Shown piece after piece: positions 1,041-9,322 of a stretch of DNA of 32,000 nucleotides; positions within the stretch are counted from its first letter, which is position 1; the number at the start of each line of letters is the position of its first letter. A program made the translations under genes and the position numbers. This DNA comes from Candidatus Methylomirabilis oxygeniifera. GTDB lineage: Bacteria > Methylomirabilota > Methylomirabilia > Methylomirabilales > Methylomirabilaceae. The notes under the pieces are model-generated. The model ran no database searches, was not told the DNA's origin, and saw only the letters and a list, made by a program, of their open reading frames with translations. The stretch is from NCBI GenBank assembly GCA_000091165.1, contig FP565575.1, positions 2,490,001-2,522,000 on the forward strand, written 5' to 3'.

Positions 1041-1402
1041 ATGGTACAGCCACTCACCATGACGGTTTCAGATACAGGGACGACCGATCTGGATGGCTTG
1101 AACGTGGCCCAGCAGGCGGCGGTCACGCACGGCGATGGCCCGTTGCTGATCATTGCGGGCGCCGGGACGGGGAAGACCACGGTGATCGCGCGCACCGGAT
1201 CGCCCACCCGATCAACAGCAGGCGAGTCCGGCCGGAGCAGGTGCTGGCGCTGACCTTTACCGAGAAGGCGGCGGCGGAGATGGAGCGGCGTGTCGACCTG
1301 CTGGTTCCGTACGGCTTCACCGATACCTGGATCTCCACCTTTCACGCCTTTGGAGACCGCGTGCTTCGGGAGCACGCCCTGGTGCTGGGGCTGAGTCCGG
1401 AC
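1041..1402 (+). pseudogene. truncated, frameshifted 5' fragment of the UvrD-type helicase-nuclease gene
   Basis: ORF 1041..1253 encodes ...GLNVAQQAAVTHGDGPLLIIAGAGTGKTTVIA, including Walker A. The homologous reading (RIAHPINSRRVRPEQVLALTFTEKAAAEMERRVDLLVPYGFTDTWISTFHAFGDRVLREHALVLGLSPD) then continues in the frame of ORF 941..1459. The shift comes from a 2-nt indel near 1190 relative to 6494..6500. Homology to 6347..9322 stops abruptly at 1402. Confidence 0.85.
1095..1402 (+). repeat. direct repeat, copy 1 (308 nt) of helicase 5' coding sequence
   Basis: Hand alignment with 6401..6706 shows 13 substitutions plus one 2-nt indel, including a perfectly identical stretch of more than 100 nt. The right boundary is sharp (1402 vs 6706). 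The left boundary fades into diverged N-terminal codons. Confidence 0.9.
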
Positions 1403-1437: not shown

Positions 1438-2043
1438 TCATCCCACAGCCTCCAGATAGGGGCGGATCAGTGTCACGCGGTCCACCGGAGCGAAGCGCCA
1501 GACGGCCTCCAGGCGTTTAGGGTACATCCTCCGGTAGTCGCGCAGCGCCTCGATGGCGACGTCGATGCCGATCTTGTTGCGGAACTTGAAACAGTCCGCG
1601 ACGGTCTTGGCCGCGCTGAACACCCGTACCGTCACGCCGGAGATGCGGTGCTCCTCCACCCCTTCCAGCAACGCGGGGCCTGACAGGTAGAACAGCCGCA
1701 GGGGAGGCTGCTCCAGTCGCGGCCTCCACGCTTTGCGGTCGATCGCCATCCAGATCTCGAACGGGTTCTGCGTGGTAAGCCCGTGAAAGCGCAGTGCCAA
1801 CAGTAGGCAGAGGACGCCCACAGGCACGCGGCGCGCGACCTCTACGAGATGCTGTCGCTCCGTTACGGGGGCACCCGGGAGCCGGTAGAGACCGCGCCCC
1901 ACCCGCTCGAGCAGTCCCCTATCCAGCAACCGGCGTAGTTGTATTCTCGAGACGCCAACGCGCTCAATGTCCCGGGAGCGCGCGATCCCAACTCGCTGCA
2001 TCAGCTCTTGAATCTGATCCGGTAGGATGATTCTTGTAGTCAC
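1438..2043 (-). CDS. abiEi: AbiEi-family (type IV TA antitoxin / wHTH regulator) protein, apparently without its AbiEii partner
   Basis: 201 aa with a GTG start. The N-terminus ELMQRVGIARSRDIERVGVSRIQLRRLLDRGLLERVGRGLYRLPG followed by VPVGVLCLLLALRFHGLTTQNP is the pattern I associate with AbiEi N- and C-terminal domains (COG5340). Confidence 0.7.
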   Translation of the reverse strand: MTTRIILPDQIQELMQRVGIARSRDIERVGVSRIQLRRLLDRGLLERVGRGLYRLPGAPVTERQHLVEVARRVPVGVLCLLLALRFHGLTTQNPFEIWMAIDRKAWRPRLEQPPLRLFYLSGPALLEGVEEHRISGVTVRVFSAAKTVADCFKFRNKIGIDVAIEALRDYRRMYPKRLEAVWRFAPVDRVTLIRPYLEAVG

Positions 2044-2495: not shown

Positions 2496-3881
2496 TCAGC
2501 TGCAAGCGCTTGTTGCGCAGCTCGTCGATCTAGCGCGCAACCTTGAGAGGTTTGAGCCATCCTTGTCGACGATCTTGCCAGCCGAGACCGATTTTGCATA
2601 GATATCAACTGCTGCCGCCAAGTCGTCGTTCCCGATGATACGCTTCTCCACCGCGCTTTGAAGCATTGCTGCAACCTTGTCTCCTAGCAGTCGCGATTGG
2701 ACGTTCGACACTCGCTCAATCAGGAAGAAGGACTGACCGAGGGAAGGTTCGGTAACAAGCTCATCCAAAAAGAGACGCATTGCCCGAGGAACACCGTAGA
2801 CTCCCCGCTCGAACCGCACAGATCCAAGGTATAGCTCCAGCTGACGGTCTTTCGTGATCACCCGATCGAGCCAAAGTGCCAACAGGATTTCTATCGCCTT
2901 CCGTCGTACGAGCTTCTGATGCTCTTGTATGAATAGCGTACGGGCTAGCTGTTGAGTGATCGTCGACCCTCCGGATCGCCGCCGCGCGCCGCCCAAGCCT
3001 AGGAGTGCCCTTGCGGAACCTCGTAGGCTGAGACCGCGGTGTGAAAAGAACGTCTGGTCTTCGATAAAGACGAGAACCTTCTTGAGGTTGGTAAGATCGA
3101 TCTTCAGCCTTTGGATCTCATAGCTCGCAAGCGTCGCTCTGTAGATCACTTGCTCAAAATTCCCAACGAGCTGGAGCCGGACGCACCGCGCGAGCGAACG
3201 CGCGAAGAGAAGGCTCAAACGCTCATGGGTGTCCAGCAGCGCCTTGCGATAGACGATCGCAAGGAAGATCGCCCAGCCTGCAGCGCCGAGGAATACTAAT
3301 GCTGTTGGAGGGGCGTAAAAGATCCAGTTCCGGGCGAGCAACTGCTTCGACAGTTCAGTCGATACGAAGAGAACCACTGCCGCGGAGAAGCCGGCGATCA
3401 TGAACAGCGGATACGCGACGTAGGTGTTCCATCCGGGGAAGAGGCGTACTGCAAACGGCTCATCCGCTCCCTCAATCCTCCAATTTGGCAGCACGAGCTG
3501 CAGTCGCCCGTAGCTGAGACCGAGCATTCTGCGAAGGACGATCACCTTCCGCGCAGAGAAGACGACTGCCTTCTGTCGGTCGGCGAAATACCGCAGCGTG
3601 ACGATGGAGAAACCAGCGGCGAGAGCGAGAAGGACCGCTAGAGTCAACTCGGGGGCGAGGATAGGCTCAAAGGCGACCGTCAACGGGCCAAGGGAGCCAA
3701 CTATGAGAGATCCAAGCCCAGCGGCGGCAACTATCGAGATGTTGGAGGCGTTGAGGAACACACGCTCCTCGGCTTCGAGGGTCTTCGCAGCCGCCCTGTA
3801 CTCCTCGATTGCGATATCCCGGTGGTCAAAGTGATACGTCGGGAAGTGCTGCTGCCAGCCTTGCTGTTCGTCGTCTATCAT
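2496..3881 (-). CDS. multi-pass membrane protein with C-terminal GT51 peptidoglycan glycosyltransferase (transglycosylase) domain
   Basis: ORF 2496..4028. I prefer the ATG at 3881 (MIDDEQQGW...) because the longer form overlaps the upstream gene, but no clear RBS is present, so the start is uncertain. There are four hydrophobic helices: ISIVAAAGLGSLIVGSLGPLTVAF, LTLAVLLALAAGFSIVTLRYF, YVAYPLFMIAGFSAAVVLFV and ALVFLGAAGWAIFLAIVY. GT51 motifs follow: FIEDQTFFSHRG (EDxxFxxHxG), GGSTITQQLAR, RRKAIE...LELYLG. Confidence 0.75.
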   Translation of the reverse strand: MIDDEQQGWQQHFPTYHFDHRDIAIEEYRAAAKTLEAEERVFLNASNISIVAAAGLGSLIVGSLGPLTVAFEPILAPELTLAVLLALAAGFSIVTLRYFADRQKAVVFSARKVIVLRRMLGLSYGRLQLVLPNWRIEGADEPFAVRLFPGWNTYVAYPLFMIAGFSAAVVLFVSTELSKQLLARNWIFYAPPTALVFLGAAGWAIFLAIVYRKALLDTHERLSLLFARSLARCVRLQLVGNFEQVIYRATLASYEIQRLKIDLTNLKKVLVFIEDQTFFSHRGLSLRGSARALLGLGGARRRSGGSTITQQLARTLFIQEHQKLVRRKAIEILLALWLDRVITKDRQLELYLGSVRFERGVYGVPRAMRLFLDELVTEPSLGQSFFLIERVSNVQSRLLGDKVAAMLQSAVEKRIIGNDDLAAAVDIYAKSVSAGKIVDKDGSNLSRLRARSTSCATSACS

Positions 3882-3927
3882 GTGCGATTTACTGACGGAG
3901 GTTTGTATGCGCGAGCTGCCCAACGCT

Positions 3928-3952
3928 GCGCGTAACCCGCGGGTTAACGCGC
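3928..3952 (-). other. GC-rich intercistronic hairpin between the AbiV-like and GT51 genes
   Basis: GCGCGTAACCCGCGGGTTAACGCGC is a near-perfect palindrome with one bulged base. No U-tract follows on the coding strand. Confidence 0.4.
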
Positions 3953-3955
3953 TTG

Positions 3956-4714
3956 TTAGGCATTCGGCGATTCCGGTCCGATGTTTCGCTGTTCCGAGTC
4001 CTCGAGCTCCTTCCAGATCGGGGCCCACTGTTCCGCCGTGATGAACCCCTTGTCGACCAGTTCCGCGTGCAGCCCGTTCATCGCATCTCGAAACGAGCCC
4101 CCTTTCTCCCGGGCGGCCGCAGCGTGTCTTGCCCAGACCTCCAACTCCTCGAGTGGGTAGTCGCGGAGGTAGTTGATGACGACCGCCGCCTCCCTGAGCA
4201 GAGTCTCGCTACGGTCGCGACAGTCTAGGTTACCGGGCAGGTGCACTGCCACCCCCTCGGGGATCGCGAAGCAATCGCTGTACAAGCCCAACTGCTTCGC
4301 AGCGTCAAGGTCTTCGGGAGATGGACCGTTCGCTTTGACTGCTACGCGCGTTTCCGCATCGAGATTCAGAAGAAGAACGCTTGCCCGCATCTCGATGGCG
4401 AAGTTGAAGAGCTCCGTCTTGGCGCTGTGGCGTCGATATGCACGCCACAGCGCGTCACACGACTGGCGCGGTGCGGCGATGCCGATGAGGATCGACATCA
4501 CGATGTGTGGTTTGCCTGCCTCTTCTAGCGCCAGGACGCATAGAGCAGTGGAGTGGTGAAAGCGTCCTTGCTCATGGAGCATCTTCGCGCTCGCCAGGAG
4601 GTCCAGCGCGTTGAGGCGAGCCGCCTGTATTGCCGCTGCTGCGTCGTGTGGCGTGAGGGGACCCGAGTAGGGTTGAAGACCAACCCTACTCAGTGATGAG
4701 GGCGGCTTGGCCAT
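3956..4714 (-). CDS. AbiV-like HEPN-domain abortive-infection family protein
   Basis: 252 aa, with ATG at 4714 preceded by GGAGA at a 6-nt spacer. LNALDLLASAKMLHEQGRFHHSTALCVLALEEAGK resembles the AbiV-family N-terminal helix pair (A.EE.GK). WRAYRRHSAK contains an R-x4-H HEPN motif. This is family assignment from memory, not a database search. Confidence 0.6.
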   Translation of the reverse strand: MAKPPSSLSRVGLQPYSGPLTPHDAAAAIQAARLNALDLLASAKMLHEQGRFHHSTALCVLALEEAGKPHIVMSILIGIAAPRQSCDALWRAYRRHSAKTELFNFAIEMRASVLLLNLDAETRVAVKANGPSPEDLDAAKQLGLYSDCFAIPEGVAVHLPGNLDCRDRSETLLREAAVVINYLRDYPLEELEVWARHAAAAREKGGSFRDAMNGLHAELVDKGFITAEQWAPIWKELEDSEQRNIGPESPNA

Positions 4715-4742
4715 GCCGTGTCTCCGAATGCCTAACTATTGA

Positions 4743-5480
4743 TTAGGCGGACTCCTCTCGTTTGCGCTCACGTGCCCACTCCTGCCAATACCGCGCGTTG
4801 GAAAGGAAGTCACTATCGATGAGCAATCGCCTCCGGACGTCAAACACCCGGAACGTGCGCTCGTAGTCATACGTAACTCCCCAGTAGCCCAGGTAGTCTG
4901 CCGTGGTAACGCCCCGAATCGTTTCATCGACGTCGAGCAGAACACGGAAGCGGCATAGTCGTTGTTCCGGGTCTTGAAAGACCGGTACCTGGATGGAGTA
5001 CGGGTACTCACCCCGCCCGTTGCGGAGGAGTGGGTAGCACTGGCCGAGCGTCTGGAAAATCTGGCCCAGCGACTCATAGATGGAGTCGCTGCAGATCTTG
5101 GTAATGACGACCTCCGCATCGGCAAACGTGAGGTGCAGTTCGCTGATATCGACGTTGCGCTCCGGATTCTGAGACCGCAGCTTCTTGTAGGCGGCCAGAA
5201 ACGGACGAAGGACAAACGACCGAGCCCCGGACTTGAGCAAATCAAATGCAACGCCGTCAGCGACCAGTTTCAGGACGTCATGAATAGAGATGTTGGATAG
5301 CGCGTGAACTGCAAACTCATAAAGACCACCTCCGAGGTCGCCGGGTCTGCTGCGGACCCGCGCCACGTAGTGGGCATCGAGCTCTGACTGGAATTCCCGA
5401 ATGCCGTCCAGCTCGAGAAGGCGGTCAGGACCCTCCTGGATTGCCCAGTACTCGACTTGGAGCGAAAGGGGGTACTCCAT
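4743..5480 (-). CDS. hypothetical protein (245 aa), first gene of the AbiV-like operon
   Basis: Lies within ORF 4743..5633. The ATG at 5480 (MEYPLSLQVEYW...) is preceded by GGAGTGACG. No recognisable motif, no TM segment and no signal peptide. Confidence 0.55.
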   Translation of the reverse strand: MEYPLSLQVEYWAIQEGPDRLLELDGIREFQSELDAHYVARVRSRPGDLGGGLYEFAVHALSNISIHDVLKLVADGVAFDLLKSGARSFVLRPFLAAYKKLRSQNPERNVDISELHLTFADAEVVITKICSDSIYESLGQIFQTLGQCYPLLRNGRGEYPYSIQVPVFQDPEQRLCRFRVLLDVDETIRGVTTADYLGYWGVTYDYERTFRVFDVRRRLLIDSDFLSNARYWQEWARERKREESA

Positions 5481-5666
5481 CGTCACTCCGATCCGCCTAA
5501 CTATAAGTGAGCCGCCCCTGAAACCGACAAAGGCTGGCGGCCTATTTCCTGAATCGACTCGACTCCCAAACGACGAATTGGCGTGTAATCTCCCACACTT
5601 AGCCAAACCGGTCAAGCGTATTCTGGCCGACAAATGTTGCCGGCTTCGGAAGCCTATCCCGGTCGG

Positions 5667-5939
5667 CTATCCGATTTTTGACGTCAGTTCTCCCTCAACA
5701 TACCGATGGATGATGCCGGAAATGAGGGTTTGATAGGGGATGCCTAATTCCATGGCTTTCTTTTGAATGCCCTTGTAGTCATGGTCGTAGAGGCGAATGG
5801 TAATCCGTCTGTCCTTGACCAAGGTCTTTCTGGCGGTCGCCTTTATAGCTTCAAGCTCCTTCTTGGACGGAGCGGATAGCTTCATCTGCCCTTTCTCGTA
5901 GGCATCGACAATGGTTTTTTCCTCTTTGCTGTATTTCAT
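5667..5939 (-). CDS. brnA: BrnA-family antitoxin (RHH/CopG-like C-terminus)
   Basis: 90 aa. RITIRLYDHDYKGIQKKAMELGIPYQTLISGIIHRYVEGEL matches the BrnA pattern (..IPYQTLI..). It lies 6 nt downstream of the BrnT-like gene, the toxin-first order typical of BrnTA. Confidence 0.7.
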   Translation of the reverse strand: MKYSKEEKTIVDAYEKGQMKLSAPSKKELEAIKATARKTLVKDRRITIRLYDHDYKGIQKKAMELGIPYQTLISGIIHRYVEGELTSKIG

Positions 5940-5945
5940 GTGTTG

Positions 5946-6224
5946 TTAACCCTCCTGCTCCTTTTTGTATGCTTGGGTTGCCTTTCGACTCGGAATAATG
6001 GTCTTCAAGAAGATGTCATCCTTTTCTACAACGTGAGGAACAAGATAAATGTAGTCTTCCACAACCACAAAGTATATTCGCTGTCCGGGATAGTTCTCTT
6101 GATCGGGGTGATCGGTAAGTTTCCAGACGTCACCACGAGCCAGATGAAAGAGTATCTTTTCGAAAGAGATCCCTCTTTCCTCCTTTAACCACTCGTTCTT
6201 CTCGGAGTCCCATTCATATTTCAT
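5946..6224 (-). CDS. brnT: BrnT-family (DUF497) toxin
   Basis: 92 aa. MKYEWDSEKNEWLKEERGISFEKI fits the BrnT N-terminal signature (F/YEWD..K...N..K.G.sFeE). GC content is low relative to the rest of the window. Confidence 0.7.
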   Translation of the reverse strand: MKYEWDSEKNEWLKEERGISFEKILFHLARGDVWKLTDHPDQENYPGQRIYFVVVEDYIYLVPHVVEKDDIFLKTIIPSRKATQAYKKEQEG

Positions 6225-6232
6225 GTTTTATA

Positions 6233-6253
6233 TGTACATCTTTTGTCTGTACA
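6233..6253. promoter_or_regulatory. TGTACA-N9-TGTACA paired palindromes directly upstream of brnT (candidate BrnA operator)
   Basis: TGTACAtcttttgtcTGTACA begins 9 nt upstream of the brnT ATG (6224, minus strand). TTGACT lies immediately upstream on the minus strand, and a perfect TATAAT (complement of 6302..6307) lies further upstream. Confidence 0.4.
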
Positions 6254-6346
6254 AGTCAACGTGATAGCATTGCCGTTTATACCGGAGGGAATCGTCATGC
6301 TATTATAGCGTGGCGTGGTTGAGCGACTACAAAGGATTGGCGAGGA

Positions 6347-9322
6347 ATGGTGGAAGAGCCTCAAGTGATCTCAGAAAGAAATCCTGCGATGGGTGTGGAA
6401 GGCTTGAACGCGGCCCAGCAGGCGGCGGTCACGCACGGCGATGGCCCGTTGCTCATCATTGCGGGCGCCGGGACGGGGAAGACCACCGTAATCGCTCACC
6501 GAATCGCCCACCTGATCAACAGCAGGCGGGCCCGGCCGGAACAGGTGCTGGCGCTGACCTTTACCGAGAAGGCGGCGGCGGAGATGGAGCGGCGTGTCGA
6601 CCTGCTGGTTCCGTACGGCTTCACCGATACCTGGATCTCCACCTTCCACGCCTTTGGAGACCGTGTGCTTCGGGAGCACGCCCTAGTGCTGGGGCTGAGT
6701 CCGGACTTCCGCCTGCTGACGGTGCCGGAGCAGGTCATCTTCTTTCAGGAGCATCTGTTCGAGCTTCCATTAGACTATTTCCGGCCGCTCGGTAGTCCGC
6801 TGCGGCATGTGCAGGCGCTGCTTCAACTGTTCAGTCGAGCCAAGGACGAGGATGTCGGCCCTGAGCAGTACGCGAGTTACGCGGAGGAGCTGGTCGGTCG
6901 AGCGACGGCCGCTCCGGACGACAAGACGCTGGCGGAGCAGGCGACGCGGGAGATGGAGATCGCCAGGGTCTACCGGCAGTACCAGGAGCTGATGGCGCGA
7001 GAAGGGAAGCTGGACTTCGGTGATCTGATGGTGCGGACACTGGACTTACTTCGGGAACACCCGCTGGTGCTCCAACGGTTGCAGGAGCGGTTCCGGTATA
7101 TCCTGGTCGATGAGTTCCAGGATACCAACTACGCCCAGTTTCAGATTGTGAAGCTGCTCACGGCCTCCCATCGGAATGTGACGGTGGTGGGGGATGACGA
7201 CCAGTCGATCTTCAAATTTCGAGGGGCCTCGATCAGCAACATCCTCAGCTTCCGCCGTGAGTTTCCTGACGCCGAGACGATCGTCCTTGCAGAGAACTAT
7301 CGCTCGACCTCAAGCGTCCTCGATGCCGCGTACCGTCTGATCCAGCACAACAACCCTGATCGACTGGAGTATCAGGAAGGTGTCGACAAGCGCCTGAAGC
7401 CTTGCAATGGTGACGGCCCGGCCGTTGAGAGCGTAGTCTTCCAGACCTATCAGGAAGAGGCCGACTGGGTGGTCGAAAAGATCGAGGAACTGATCGAGGC
7501 CAAGGCGTGCGCGCTTGGCGACATCGCCATTCTGGTCCGGCGAAACAGCGATGCCGACCCATTGCTCCGAGCACTGAACATGAAGGGAATCCCCTGGAGC
7601 TTCAGCGGGGCGAAGGGTCTGTACGACAGGGATGAGATACGTCTGGTGATCTCGTTCCTCCGCCTACTGGCTGATCCATACGACTCCCTGAGTCTCTTTC
7701 ATCTGGCTGGCTCCGATATCTACGGGTTGCCGGCTGCCGATTTGACCCTCTGCAACGCCCATGCGCGCCGGAAGCATCGCAGTCTCTATGAGGTGTTGCT
7801 CGATCTGACGAGGCGACCAGGCGCTGTGCCCGAGCTGTCCGGGGTCTCGACTGAAGGGATCGCTGCTGCCACGGCCCTCCTGAGTGATTTGCATCGCTAT
7901 CTGGACAAAGCGGCTCGGGAGGTGACGGGACGTATCCTGTACGAGTTCTTGATGGAACAGCCGGGCTACGGCAAGCGACTGCTGCATTCGAACTCCTCGC
8001 GCGATCATCAACGGATCAGCAACCTCGCCGCATTCTTCGGCCTGGTTCAGCGGTTCGGCGAGGTGGCGCCCCAGGACCGCGTGGCCGGCTTTGTTCCGTA
8101 TCTGACGATGCTGATCGAGGCGGGCGAGAACCCGCCCGTTGCGGAGGGTGAGGCGGCAGAGGAAGGGGTGGCCGTGCTCACGCTGCACAAGGCCAAGGGC
8201 CTCGAGTTCGAGGCGGTGTTTCTCGTAGGCCTGGTCGAGAAACGGTTTCCCTCGATCGATCGGCGGGAGGCAATCCCGCTTCCCGATGAGCTGATCAAGG
8301 AGACGCTACCGTCCGGCGACTTTCATCAGCAGGAGGAGCGACGTCTGTTCTACGTTGGCATGACCCGGGCCAAGCGGCACCTGTTCCTCACGCGGGCGAA
8401 AGATTACGGGACAAAGCGGGAGTGGAAGCGTAGCCGGTTCCTGGCGGAGGCGCTGGCCCTGCCGAGAGAGGAGGAAGAGCAGCCCTGGCGAGGGACGGCA
8501 GAGGCGGTCATAGGTCGATACGCGCCGCCGCCCCAGGTCGCCATCGATCTTGCGATCCGGGCTGACACCCCGCTCAGCCTCTCGCACTATCAGATCGATG
8601 ACTATCTGACCTGCCCGTTGAAATACAAATATGTCCATATCCTGCGGGTGCCTGTGCTCAGAGAGCATACGATCATCTACGGCGCCGCGCTGCATCGGGC
8701 CGTTCAGGCGTATAATACCCAACGGCTTACCGGGCAAACAATGTCGCTTGACGATCTGATCAAATCGTTTGAAGCCCACTGGGTCAATGAAGGGTTCATC
8801 TCCCGGGAACACGAGGAGCGGCGAATGCAGGAAGGTCGGGATGCCCTGACCCGCTTCCATGCCGGTGCCGCGAAGGGACCGCTGCCGACGTCGGTCGAGA
8901 AACGATTCCGGTTCCAGCTCGGTGACGATCTCGTCACCGGTATTATGGATCGGGTAGATGAGCGTGAGGGTGAGACCGTAATTATCGACTATAAGTCGTC
9001 GTCGGTCCGGGACCAAAAAGCGGCAGACAAAGAGGCCCGGGAGAGCCAGCAACTTGCGCTGTATGCGCTGGCCTACCGGGAATCGATCGGCCGGTTGCCG
9101 GATCGGGTGGAGTTGCATTTCCTGACCCCCGGCGGCGTCATCGTCGGGCAGGCGGTGAAAAAGGAAAAAGATCTCGATCAGGCGGTCGAACGGGTTCGGG
9201 CGGCTGCAACCGGGATTCGGGCAGGTCTCTTTCAGGCGACCCCCAGTCAGTGGGTCTGCAGCTTCTGCGCCTTCAGGACCATCTGTCCTGCCACCGTGTG
9301 GATCGGGGAGCACCAGGGATGA
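6347..9322 (+). CDS. UvrD/PcrA-family SF1 helicase fused to a C-terminal PD-(D/E)XK (Cas4/AddB-like, Cys-cluster) nuclease
   Basis: 991 aa. Helicase motifs: AGAGTGKTT, LTFTEKAAAEM, VDEFQDTN, VVGDDDQSIFKFRGA, NYRS, TLHKAKGLEFEAVFLVG, ERRLFYVGMTRAK. Nuclease motifs: YLTCPLKY, IMDRVDE...VIIDYKSS, QLALYALAY, and CSFCAFRTIC at the C-terminus. The start is uncertain (ATG 6347 has GAGGA too close; 6389 is an alternative). Confidence 0.9.
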   Translation: MVEEPQVISERNPAMGVEGLNAAQQAAVTHGDGPLLIIAGAGTGKTTVIAHRIAHLINSRRARPEQVLALTFTEKAAAEMERRVDLLVPYGFTDTWISTFHAFGDRVLREHALVLGLSPDFRLLTVPEQVIFFQEHLFELPLDYFRPLGSPLRHVQALLQLFSRAKDEDVGPEQYASYAEELVGRATAAPDDKTLAEQATREMEIARVYRQYQELMAREGKLDFGDLMVRTLDLLREHPLVLQRLQERFRYILVDEFQDTNYAQFQIVKLLTASHRNVTVVGDDDQSIFKFRGASISNILSFRREFPDAETIVLAENYRSTSSVLDAAYRLIQHNNPDRLEYQEGVDKRLKPCNGDGPAVESVVFQTYQEEADWVVEKIEELIEAKACALGDIAILVRRNSDADPLLRALNMKGIPWSFSGAKGLYDRDEIRLVISFLRLLADPYDSLSLFHLAGSDIYGLPAADLTLCNAHARRKHRSLYEVLLDLTRRPGAVPELSGVSTEGIAAATALLSDLHRYLDKAAREVTGRILYEFLMEQPGYGKRLLHSNSSRDHQRISNLAAFFGLVQRFGEVAPQDRVAGFVPYLTMLIEAGENPPVAEGEAAEEGVAVLTLHKAKGLEFEAVFLVGLVEKRFPSIDRREAIPLPDELIKETLPSGDFHQQEERRLFYVGMTRAKRHLFLTRAKDYGTKREWKRSRFLAEALALPREEEEQPWRGTAEAVIGRYAPPPQVAIDLAIRADTPLSLSHYQIDDYLTCPLKYKYVHILRVPVLREHTIIYGAALHRAVQAYNTQRLTGQTMSLDDLIKSFEAHWVNEGFISREHEERRMQEGRDALTRFHAGAAKGPLPTSVEKRFRFQLGDDLVTGIMDRVDEREGETVIIDYKSSSVRDQKAADKEARESQQLALYALAYRESIGRLPDRVELHFLTPGGVIVGQAVKKEKDLDQAVERVRAAATGIRAGLFQATPSQWVCSFCAFRTICPATVWIGEHQG
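6401..6706 (+). repeat. direct repeat, copy 2 (306 nt), part of the intact helicase gene
   Basis: See copy 1 (1095..1402). Confidence 0.9.

Follow-up and report, generated by a model that had tools for sequence, protein, structure and literature searches.

A three-gene cluster in the NC10 bacterium Candidatus Methylomirabilis oxygeniifera (also M. oxyfera, the name used below) is probably a mosaic of independently mobile genes that share a defense island at the 5′ end of a helicase-nuclease gene, and not one three-component system. The cluster lies in a stretch of 32,000 nucleotides (nt) of contig FP565575.1 (assembly GCA_000091165.1, positions 2,490,001 to 2,522,000), which we call the window, and comprises three co-directional open reading frames (ORFs) on the minus strand at window positions 2496-5480, with intergenic gaps of exactly 28 and 74 nt. 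Gene 1 encodes an orphan protein, gene 2 an AbiV-family HEPN protein, and gene 3 a protein in which four hydrophobic, putative transmembrane segments precede a glycosyltransferase family 51 (GT51) domain; all three sit within a 5.3-kb island bounded by direct repeats. An initial annotation had described these genes and their spacing, the lack of a recognizable motif in the protein of 245 amino acids (aa), and the repeat-bounded defense-island setting, and each of these points stands. It had also proposed that the genes form one undescribed system of a sensor, an RNase, and an envelope effector, and had named co-occurrence in other genomes as a check. That proposal is not supported: among the loci compared, we found the triad in M. 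oxyfera assemblies only.

The distribution of the three families across genomes carries this conclusion. We compared ~60 loci with a homologue of gene 3, 12 with a homologue of gene 1, and 5 with a close relative of gene 2. The first set comprised 56 metagenome loci, retrieved with a profile of the N-terminal 262 residues that kept ordinary penicillin-binding proteins (PBPs) out, together with named genomes and the closest relatives. Tblastn with the window proteins found no AbiV gene in any of the ~60 GT51 loci, and a gene 1 homologue appeared only at L027 and L044, which represent one element sampled twice. The three closest relatives of gene 3 (70, 66, and 63% identity) are accompanied by neither gene 1 nor AbiV. 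Among gene 1 homologues, AbiV is absent at 12/12 loci and a GT51 gene at 10/12, with nine genome loci and a Tn7-like cargo island lacking both. The close relatives of gene 2, at five distinct loci, stand alone or have unrelated neighbors: those at 74, 72, 67, and 50% identity variously have housekeeping genes around them, precede a GT2-like gene, or sit in an island rich in transposons. Within M. oxyfera, the same arrangement is kept in 4/4 assemblies or contigs, with public gene calls of 245, 252, and 461 aa, but these records come from the same species and therefore count as one observation. Genes 1 and 2 match M. oxyfera database entries at 100% identity, the gene 1 entry being a hypothetical protein. 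Longer alternative ORFs (296 and 510 aa) are also present, and alignments of homologues fix the starts of the 245- and 461-aa proteins. With no co-occurrence outside M. oxyfera at the loci compared, one three-gene system is not supported.

Judged by sequence, gene 3 belongs to a widespread, solitary family in which the N-terminal domain (N-domain) and the GT51 domain form a unit with conserved catalytic residues. The protein matches PF00912 (Transgly, 6.3e-29, model positions 25-153 of 178) and contains the motifs EDQTFFSHRG, GGSTITQQ, and RRKAIE. Across 35 homologues, E274, D275, G304-S306-T307, Q310-Q311, R326-R327-K328, and E331 are invariant. A phmmer comparison with the GT domain of Aquifex PBP1a (3nb6/2oqo) gave ~2e-15 with EDxxF, GGSTITQQ, and RKxxE aligned, and an AlphaFold model of the GT51 domain superposes on 2oqo, 3nb6, and 3vmq (Foldseek target TM-score 0.6-0.73). 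The N-domain has conserved motifs of its own (WxQHxPxYxF, EERxFLNA, RKVIVLRRMLG, LPNWRxEGAxEP, FPGWxTY, and LLDxHE). Searching 1.84 billion representatives by phmmer with the N-domain alone returned 136 clusters at 50% identity. Most of the full-length proteins measure 410-490 aa, and PF00912 was found in 10/10 divergent members scanned, so that the N-domain and GT51 form an obligate fusion. The conserved N-domain motifs together with the invariant catalytic residues argue for a predicted enzyme that is active and regulated. Gene 3 scores far under the equivalog cut-offs of all NCBIfam models for MtgA and PBPs, among them TIGR02070 (75.9 vs. 182.65 bits) and TIGR02074 (98.5 vs. 508.75 bits), and PADLOC has no model for it.

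The family is large and its surroundings vary. Homologues of gene 3 form >500 clusters at 90% identity, nearly all 452-480 aa in length, and are found in Proteobacteria, Desulfuromonadota, and NC10, with 50-70% identity in Geomonas, Shewanella, Nitrosomonas, Hydrogenovibrio, Porticoccus, and numerous metagenome-assembled genomes (MAGs). The homologue search returned 70% as the best match to gene 3 and did not contain the 461-aa protein itself, which is called in public assemblies; this missing self-match probably reflects some peculiarity of the database or of how candidates were filtered. No copy of the family was found in 2.9 million viral contigs. When adjacent co-directional ORFs were clustered, nearly every locus had unrelated genes both upstream (~40 loci) and downstream (~35 loci), and the homologues thus occupy variable loci, outside conserved cell-wall loci. 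Pfam identified housekeeping neighbors (HtpG, PanC, ABC ATPase, FtsX, GNAT) and defense-type neighbors (NACHT, AAA_15, SLFN_AlbA_2+DUF5929, putAbiC, HNH, PD-(D/E)XK), and transposases and integrases also occur. PADLOC, run on 141 neighboring ORFs from 26 distinct loci, added mad2/3/8 (MADS), PDC-S04, AriA (PARIS), PtuA (Septu), PDC-S13, SoFic, and MTase_I. In Geomonas limicola (L010:5029-11467), a NACHT NTPase, an unrelated 251-aa protein, and the GT51 gene are followed by AlpA and a tyrosine integrase, which places the GT51 gene inside an integrative element. No conserved 5′ leader or promoter travels with the GT51 gene in these loci; several have GC-rich palindromes that are unrelated to one another.

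A protein of similar architecture is already known to act against phages on its own. The initial annotation was aware of no system described so far that couples a membrane GT51 domain to an AbiV-like HEPN protein and a third protein; for the membrane protein itself, a precedent was published in 2024 with Audmula, a single-gene antiphage system encoded by the Lactococcus lactis plasmid gene pUCCL630_365 (392 aa), in which four N-terminal transmembrane helices are followed by a PBP-transglycosylase-like domain (Grafakou et al. 2024 NAR, PMC11381338). Its authors reported superposition on 3VMR, an HHpred match to 2JCH, an InterPro match at superfamily level only, and 91 HMMER homologues (PMC11381338). 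Audmula delays lysis rather than causing abortive infection (Mosterd et al. 2025 PNAS, PMC12184496): walls of Audmula cells measure 27.2 vs. 22.6 nm, escape mutations fall in the catalytic domain of ceduovirus endolysins, and purified wild-type endolysin is ~3x slower at degrading Audmula-expressing cells (PMC12184496). Besides the Audmula papers, our literature search found no account of an antiphage GT51 protein, of AbiV with a transglycosylase, or of PF00912 in defense islands.

The four-transmembrane GT51 protein could instead be an accessory synthase of the cell wall that is unconnected with phage defense, such as an extra monofunctional transglycosylase used under stress or in envelope remodeling. 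Its conserved catalytic residues do suggest a working peptidoglycan glycosyltransferase, several loci have housekeeping neighbors only, and PADLOC lacks a model for this architecture. We nevertheless consider this unlikely. The family's spread over Geomonas, Shewanella, Nitrosomonas, and NC10 is patchy and looks horizontal, its contexts are hypervariable with integrase, transposase, and defense neighbors recurring, MtgA and class A PBPs lack its elaborate conserved N-domain, and Audmula provides a precedent for defense.

Gene 1 is an orphan defense-island protein that occasionally travels next to a GT51 gene. It has no significant match in Pfam, NCBIfam, PADLOC, or PHROGs. We found 152 homologues, and an alignment of 34 sequences set the start codon. 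Its AlphaFold2 model is well folded (predicted local distance difference test, pLDDT, 87; predicted TM-score, pTM, 0.86), yet Foldseek searches of PDB and BFVD returned nothing for it at E<=0.001, with only weak MIF/tautomerase-like beta-alpha-beta matches. The viral contigs contained two distant relatives (27% identity) and no others. At L020:955-10771, a homologue with 64% identity lies in apparent Tn7-like (TniQ) cargo with two GmrSD genes and a pair of ThsB-TIR and caspase (Peptidase_C14) genes; two further proteins without assignment, of 223 and 208 aa, are encoded directly upstream of it. A 251-aa protein of Geomonas, encoded between the NACHT and GT51 genes, was tried as a remote homologue and rejected (hhalign probability 0.2).

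Adjacency of gene 1 and a GT51 gene in a second lineage raises the question of an older two-gene module. At L027/L044, a gene 1 homologue (46% identity to the window) lies directly upstream of a GT51 gene (64-65%) with a gap of ~150 nt and no AbiV between them. This could mean that gene 1 and the GT51 gene were ancestrally paired, with gene 1 regulating or sensing for the glycosyltransferase, and that AbiV entered between the pair in the Methylomirabilis lineage; both families are rare, and this GT51 copy is among the closest relatives of gene 3. Such a history is nonetheless quite unlikely given that the three closest GT51 relatives lack gene 1, that 10/12 gene 1 loci lack a GT51 gene, and that ~40 other GT51 loci have unrelated upstream genes. 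Moreover, the L044 GT51 copy (L044:7055-8400) is a pseudogene, with a frameshift near codon 33 and truncation at the GGST motif; the ORF after it may be RhuM-like, judging by the look of its sequence. The second, independent adjacency keeps a facultative link between gene 1 and the GT51 gene alive.

Charge distribution in the N-domain bears on where gene 3 would act. Across 35 members, lysine plus arginine (K+R) counts average 5.7 in the N-terminal tail (N-tail), 8.4 in the 55-aa loop, and 8.6 in the segment after the fourth transmembrane helix, vs. 0.4 and 0.9 in the two short loops. Four transmembrane segments read by the positive-inside rule predict that both termini are inside and that all conserved soluble parts, including GT51, are cytoplasmic, a topology read from this simple rule and the charge counts. 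On that basis, the catalytic domain might face the cytoplasm and be held off by the N-tail and loop until infection, whereupon lipid II would be polymerized or sequestered on the inner leaflet, the undecaprenyl-phosphate pool drained, and wall synthesis stopped. Gene 3 would then be an abortive-infection effector of a hitherto undescribed type, mechanistically distinct from Audmula, with gene 1 as a possible occasional accessory sensor. We regard this as rather improbable; to our knowledge, a cytoplasmic catalytic domain would be at odds with every known GT51 enzyme. If true, an inward-facing GT51 would be unprecedented among these enzymes.

Gene 2 is, by its profile matches, an AbiV-type HEPN protein with predicted RNase activity. 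It exceeds the curated cut-offs of PF18728 HEPN_AbiV (1.6e-17, 64.5 bits vs. 27.1) and TIGR04498 AbiV_defense (2.9e-26, 92.5 bits vs. 27), bearing out the earlier AbiV-like assignment and setting it apart from a non-HEPN housekeeping family; the PADLOC AbiV model matches weakly (1.1e-3). Its translation contains LALEEAGK and RAYRRH, the two motifs first noticed, and across 16 homologues of its clade R94 and H96 never change while R91 does. The lactococcal AbiV, a HEPN RNase that cleaves rRNA, is held in check by an RNA encoded directly upstream, with which it makes up a toxin-antitoxin pair of type III, and its motif is 91-RNHKSKH-97 (R-x5-H), which the family does not conserve strictly (Zhu et al. 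2024, bioRxiv 10.1101/2024.05.05.592566). In the window, the position equivalent to abiV2 is taken by the 3′ end of gene 1, at a distance of 28 nt. Upstream of the five AbiV relatives, no extended conservation or conserved noncoding RNA is shared, only a motif of ~7 nt resembling GTTAGGC. In three of the relatives (window 4715-4742; L081, L083), it reads GTTAG(G/A)C and lies 15-25 nt 5′ of the start codon.

Several observations weigh against the mosaic reading that we prefer. The 28- and 74-nt gaps, the common strand, and the lack of consensus promoters fit co-transcription here, and the three genes may be co-transcribed in M. oxyfera. In another, divergent lineage gene 1 again borders a GT51 gene, which for two rare families is improbable as chance alone. 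Because many contigs are short, partners farther off may have gone unseen, and at 1e-4 tblastn could overlook the most remote members of so divergent a family as AbiV. The likeness of gene 3 to Audmula is one of architecture alone, and a cytoplasmic GT51 domain would be at odds with a wall-thickening role of the Audmula kind. Some of these observations would also suit a lineage-specific three-component system with gene 1 as sensor, AbiV as RNase effector, and the GT51 protein as envelope effector: the genes are tightly spaced in a common direction, all four M. oxyfera records preserve the arrangement, gene 1 lies beside GT51 again at L027/L044, and the setting is a defense island. We judge such a system very unlikely, because the triad is known from one species, homologues of each component are numerous and occur apart from the other two, and for two of the components relatives have been shown by experiment to suffice alone or with an RNA. 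Highly improbable is a third arrangement, in which gene 1 would be a protein antitoxin or regulator of AbiV in the abiV2 position and the GT51 gene unrelated cargo: lactococcal AbiV does need an element directly upstream of abiV1, where the 3′ end of gene 1 lies here, and close relatives of gene 2 show no conserved RNA there, but no gene 1 homologue lies beside any AbiV relative examined, nor AbiV beside any gene 1 homologue examined.

Under the mosaic reading, genes 2 and 3 would act separately; every biochemical activity given here, and any antiphage phenotype, is inferred. By analogy with Audmula, gene 3 would be a membrane-anchored glycan polymerase that draws on lipid II and so alters or thickens the sacculus; the altered sacculus would make phage endolysins less effective and so delay lysis and progeny release. 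The N-tail and the loop rich in lysine and arginine (K/R-rich) probably regulate the enzyme. By analogy with lactococcal AbiV, gene 2 would cleave rRNA once its inhibitor is lost, shutting off translation and aborting infection.

The island itself is bounded by a partial duplication of the helicase-nuclease gene (Table 1). The two repeat copies are 92-96% identical over ~320 bp, so that part of the 5′ end of the helicase gene is duplicated, and one assembly calls the left fragment as a 172-aa UvrD-helicase fragment. The first ~20 codons and upstream DNA of the two copies (1041-1459 vs. 6347-9322) are not alike, and it looks as if a replacement 5′ end was brought in by the inserted element; no integrase was found within the 5.3-kb island. 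Of the flanking genes assigned earlier, AbiEi is secure, as an orphan with no AbiEii toxin gene downstream, whereas the BrnT/BrnA pair stays under curated thresholds. The left repeat starts ~20 nt past the AbiEi stop codon, which suggests that AbiEii was lost by recombination at the repeat. The BrnT/BrnA-like region (window 5500-6500) has the lowest GC content of the window (0.50 vs. about 0.60), which fits a separate and perhaps more recent acquisition. UvrD-family helicase genes recur beside these families (L006:5-3050; L011:5246-9380; window 4743-9322), a gene 1 homologue of a Burkholderiales MAG directly follows a UvrD/PDDEXK helicase gene, and the GT51 gene of Shewanella baltica is oriented divergently from uvrD/rep; these neighbors may mark an insertion hotspot or be coincidence. 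Consensus promoters and terminators across the island were no more numerous than in shuffled sequence. The hairpin between genes 2 and 3 has a minimum free energy of -30.5 kcal/mol (z = -2.27), with 5/200 shuffles folding equally well; no T-run follows it and the terminator scan made no call there; its role may be that of a terminator or of an element of the mRNA.

Table 1. Features of the three-gene cluster and its island, in window coordinates
Feature	Position	Strand	Description or basis
Gene 1	4743-5480	-	245 aa, soluble alpha/beta protein, orphan family
Gene 2	3956-4714	-	252 aa, AbiV-family HEPN, putative RNase toxin
Candidate HEPN catalytic motif RAYRRH (R91-x4-H96)	4427-4444	-	Translation
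Gene 3	2496-3881	-	461 aa, four-transmembrane N-domain fused to GT51 domain
Gene 3 N-domain (aa 1-262)	3096-3881	-	Acidic N-tail, four transmembrane segments, K/R-rich 55-aa loop, linker after fourth segment
Gene 3 transmembrane segments (aa 48-66, 78-96, 155-173, 193-211)	3684-3740, 3594-3650, 3363-3419, 3249-3305	-	Hydropathy
Gene 3 GT51 domain (aa 263-461)	2496-3095	-	PF00912
Gene 3 catalytic Glu274	3060-3062	-	EDxxF motif
Gene 3 GGSTITQQ	2949-2972	-	GT51 motif
Gene 3 Glu331	2889-2891	-	RKxxE motif
Hairpin, GC-rich	3917-3962	-	Overlaps AbiV stop codon, in 74-nt gap before GT51 gene
Left direct repeat	1081-1402	+	Frameshifted 5′ fragment of helicase gene
Right direct repeat	6387-6706	+	Inside intact 991-aa UvrD/PD-(D/E)XK helicase-nuclease gene (6347-9322)
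AbiEi antitoxin/regulator gene	1438-2043	-	PADLOC AbiEi 4.9e-76; Pfam AbiEi_4 3.1e-14
BrnT-like gene	5946-6224	-	BrnT_toxin 4.7e-6, 27 bits vs. cut-off 34.5
BrnA-like gene	5667-5939	-	NF047399 1.6e-3, under curated threshold

If the mosaic reading is true, the claim of a new three-component system falls away, and interest shifts to the separate families. The Audmula architecture has so far been represented by one lactococcal plasmid gene and its 91 reported homologues. A far larger canonical-GT51 counterpart exists (136 clusters at 50% identity, >500 at 90%), spread over Gram-negative phyla and NC10 in variable and often defense-rich loci, which suggests that polymerizing cell-wall glycan may be a strategy used widely against phages. 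The family also offers biochemistry a set of proteins whose catalytic residues are conserved. Gene 1, a predicted well-folded orphan that recurs in defense islands, is a candidate for screening.

Comparison with known systems places each of the two assigned genes near a described family and apart from it. Like MtgA and the GT domains of class A PBPs, gene 3 has EDxxFxxHxG, GGSTITQQ, and RKxxE and a matching fold; those enzymes have one N-terminal transmembrane helix and conserved housekeeping contexts, whereas the window family has four transmembrane segments, a conserved N-domain of ~262-274 aa, and a distribution over variable islands. Gene 2 resembles AbiV of Lactococcus cremoris MG1363 (abiV1 + abiV2; Haaber 2008-2010) in exceeding both AbiV profile cut-offs and in that its R-x4-H starts at residue 91, as the lactococcal R-x5-H does. 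It differs in length (252 vs. 201 aa), in the variability of R91 within its own clade, and in its upstream region, a 28-nt gap after a coding gene where neither room nor conservation for an abiV2-like RNA was found. The loci L010 (NACHT) and L027/L044 (AAA_16), where the GT51 gene follows an NTPase and a protein of ~250 aa, recall STAND/NACHT or AAA-ATPase operons with variable effectors, but the STAND-like NTPases and the ~250-aa proteins proved unrelated between them when compared, and most GT51 loci have no NTPase. The 717-aa proteins of L006 and L027 were likewise compared and are unrelated.

The closest parallel is Audmula, with which we compared gene 3 by description only. Gene 3 is longer (461 vs. 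392 aa), is a canonical PF00912 protein with >500 homologues vs. 91, and has an N-domain with large conserved soluble segments; its GT51 domain is predicted to be cytoplasmic, whereas the thicker wall of Audmula cells implies an outward-facing enzyme. The count of 91 homologues suggests that Audmula is not a canonical PF00912 protein, and together with its 392-aa length and superfamily-level InterPro match, it suggests a divergent relative at best. Tblastn with full-length gene 3, its N-domain, and its GT domain against PLSDB gave no lactococcal record among the matches listed, and an Enterococcus plasmid match was an ordinary 855-aa class A PBP. Each of the two is nonetheless one polypeptide in which about four N-terminal transmembrane segments are followed by a GT51-like helical domain, and 3VMR (by Foldseek and phmmer) and 2JCH (by phmmer) are also among the matches of gene 3. 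Both are, moreover, accessory, horizontally mobile, single-gene units with no fixed partner, and in architecture the window family is a canonical-GT51 variant of the Audmula design.

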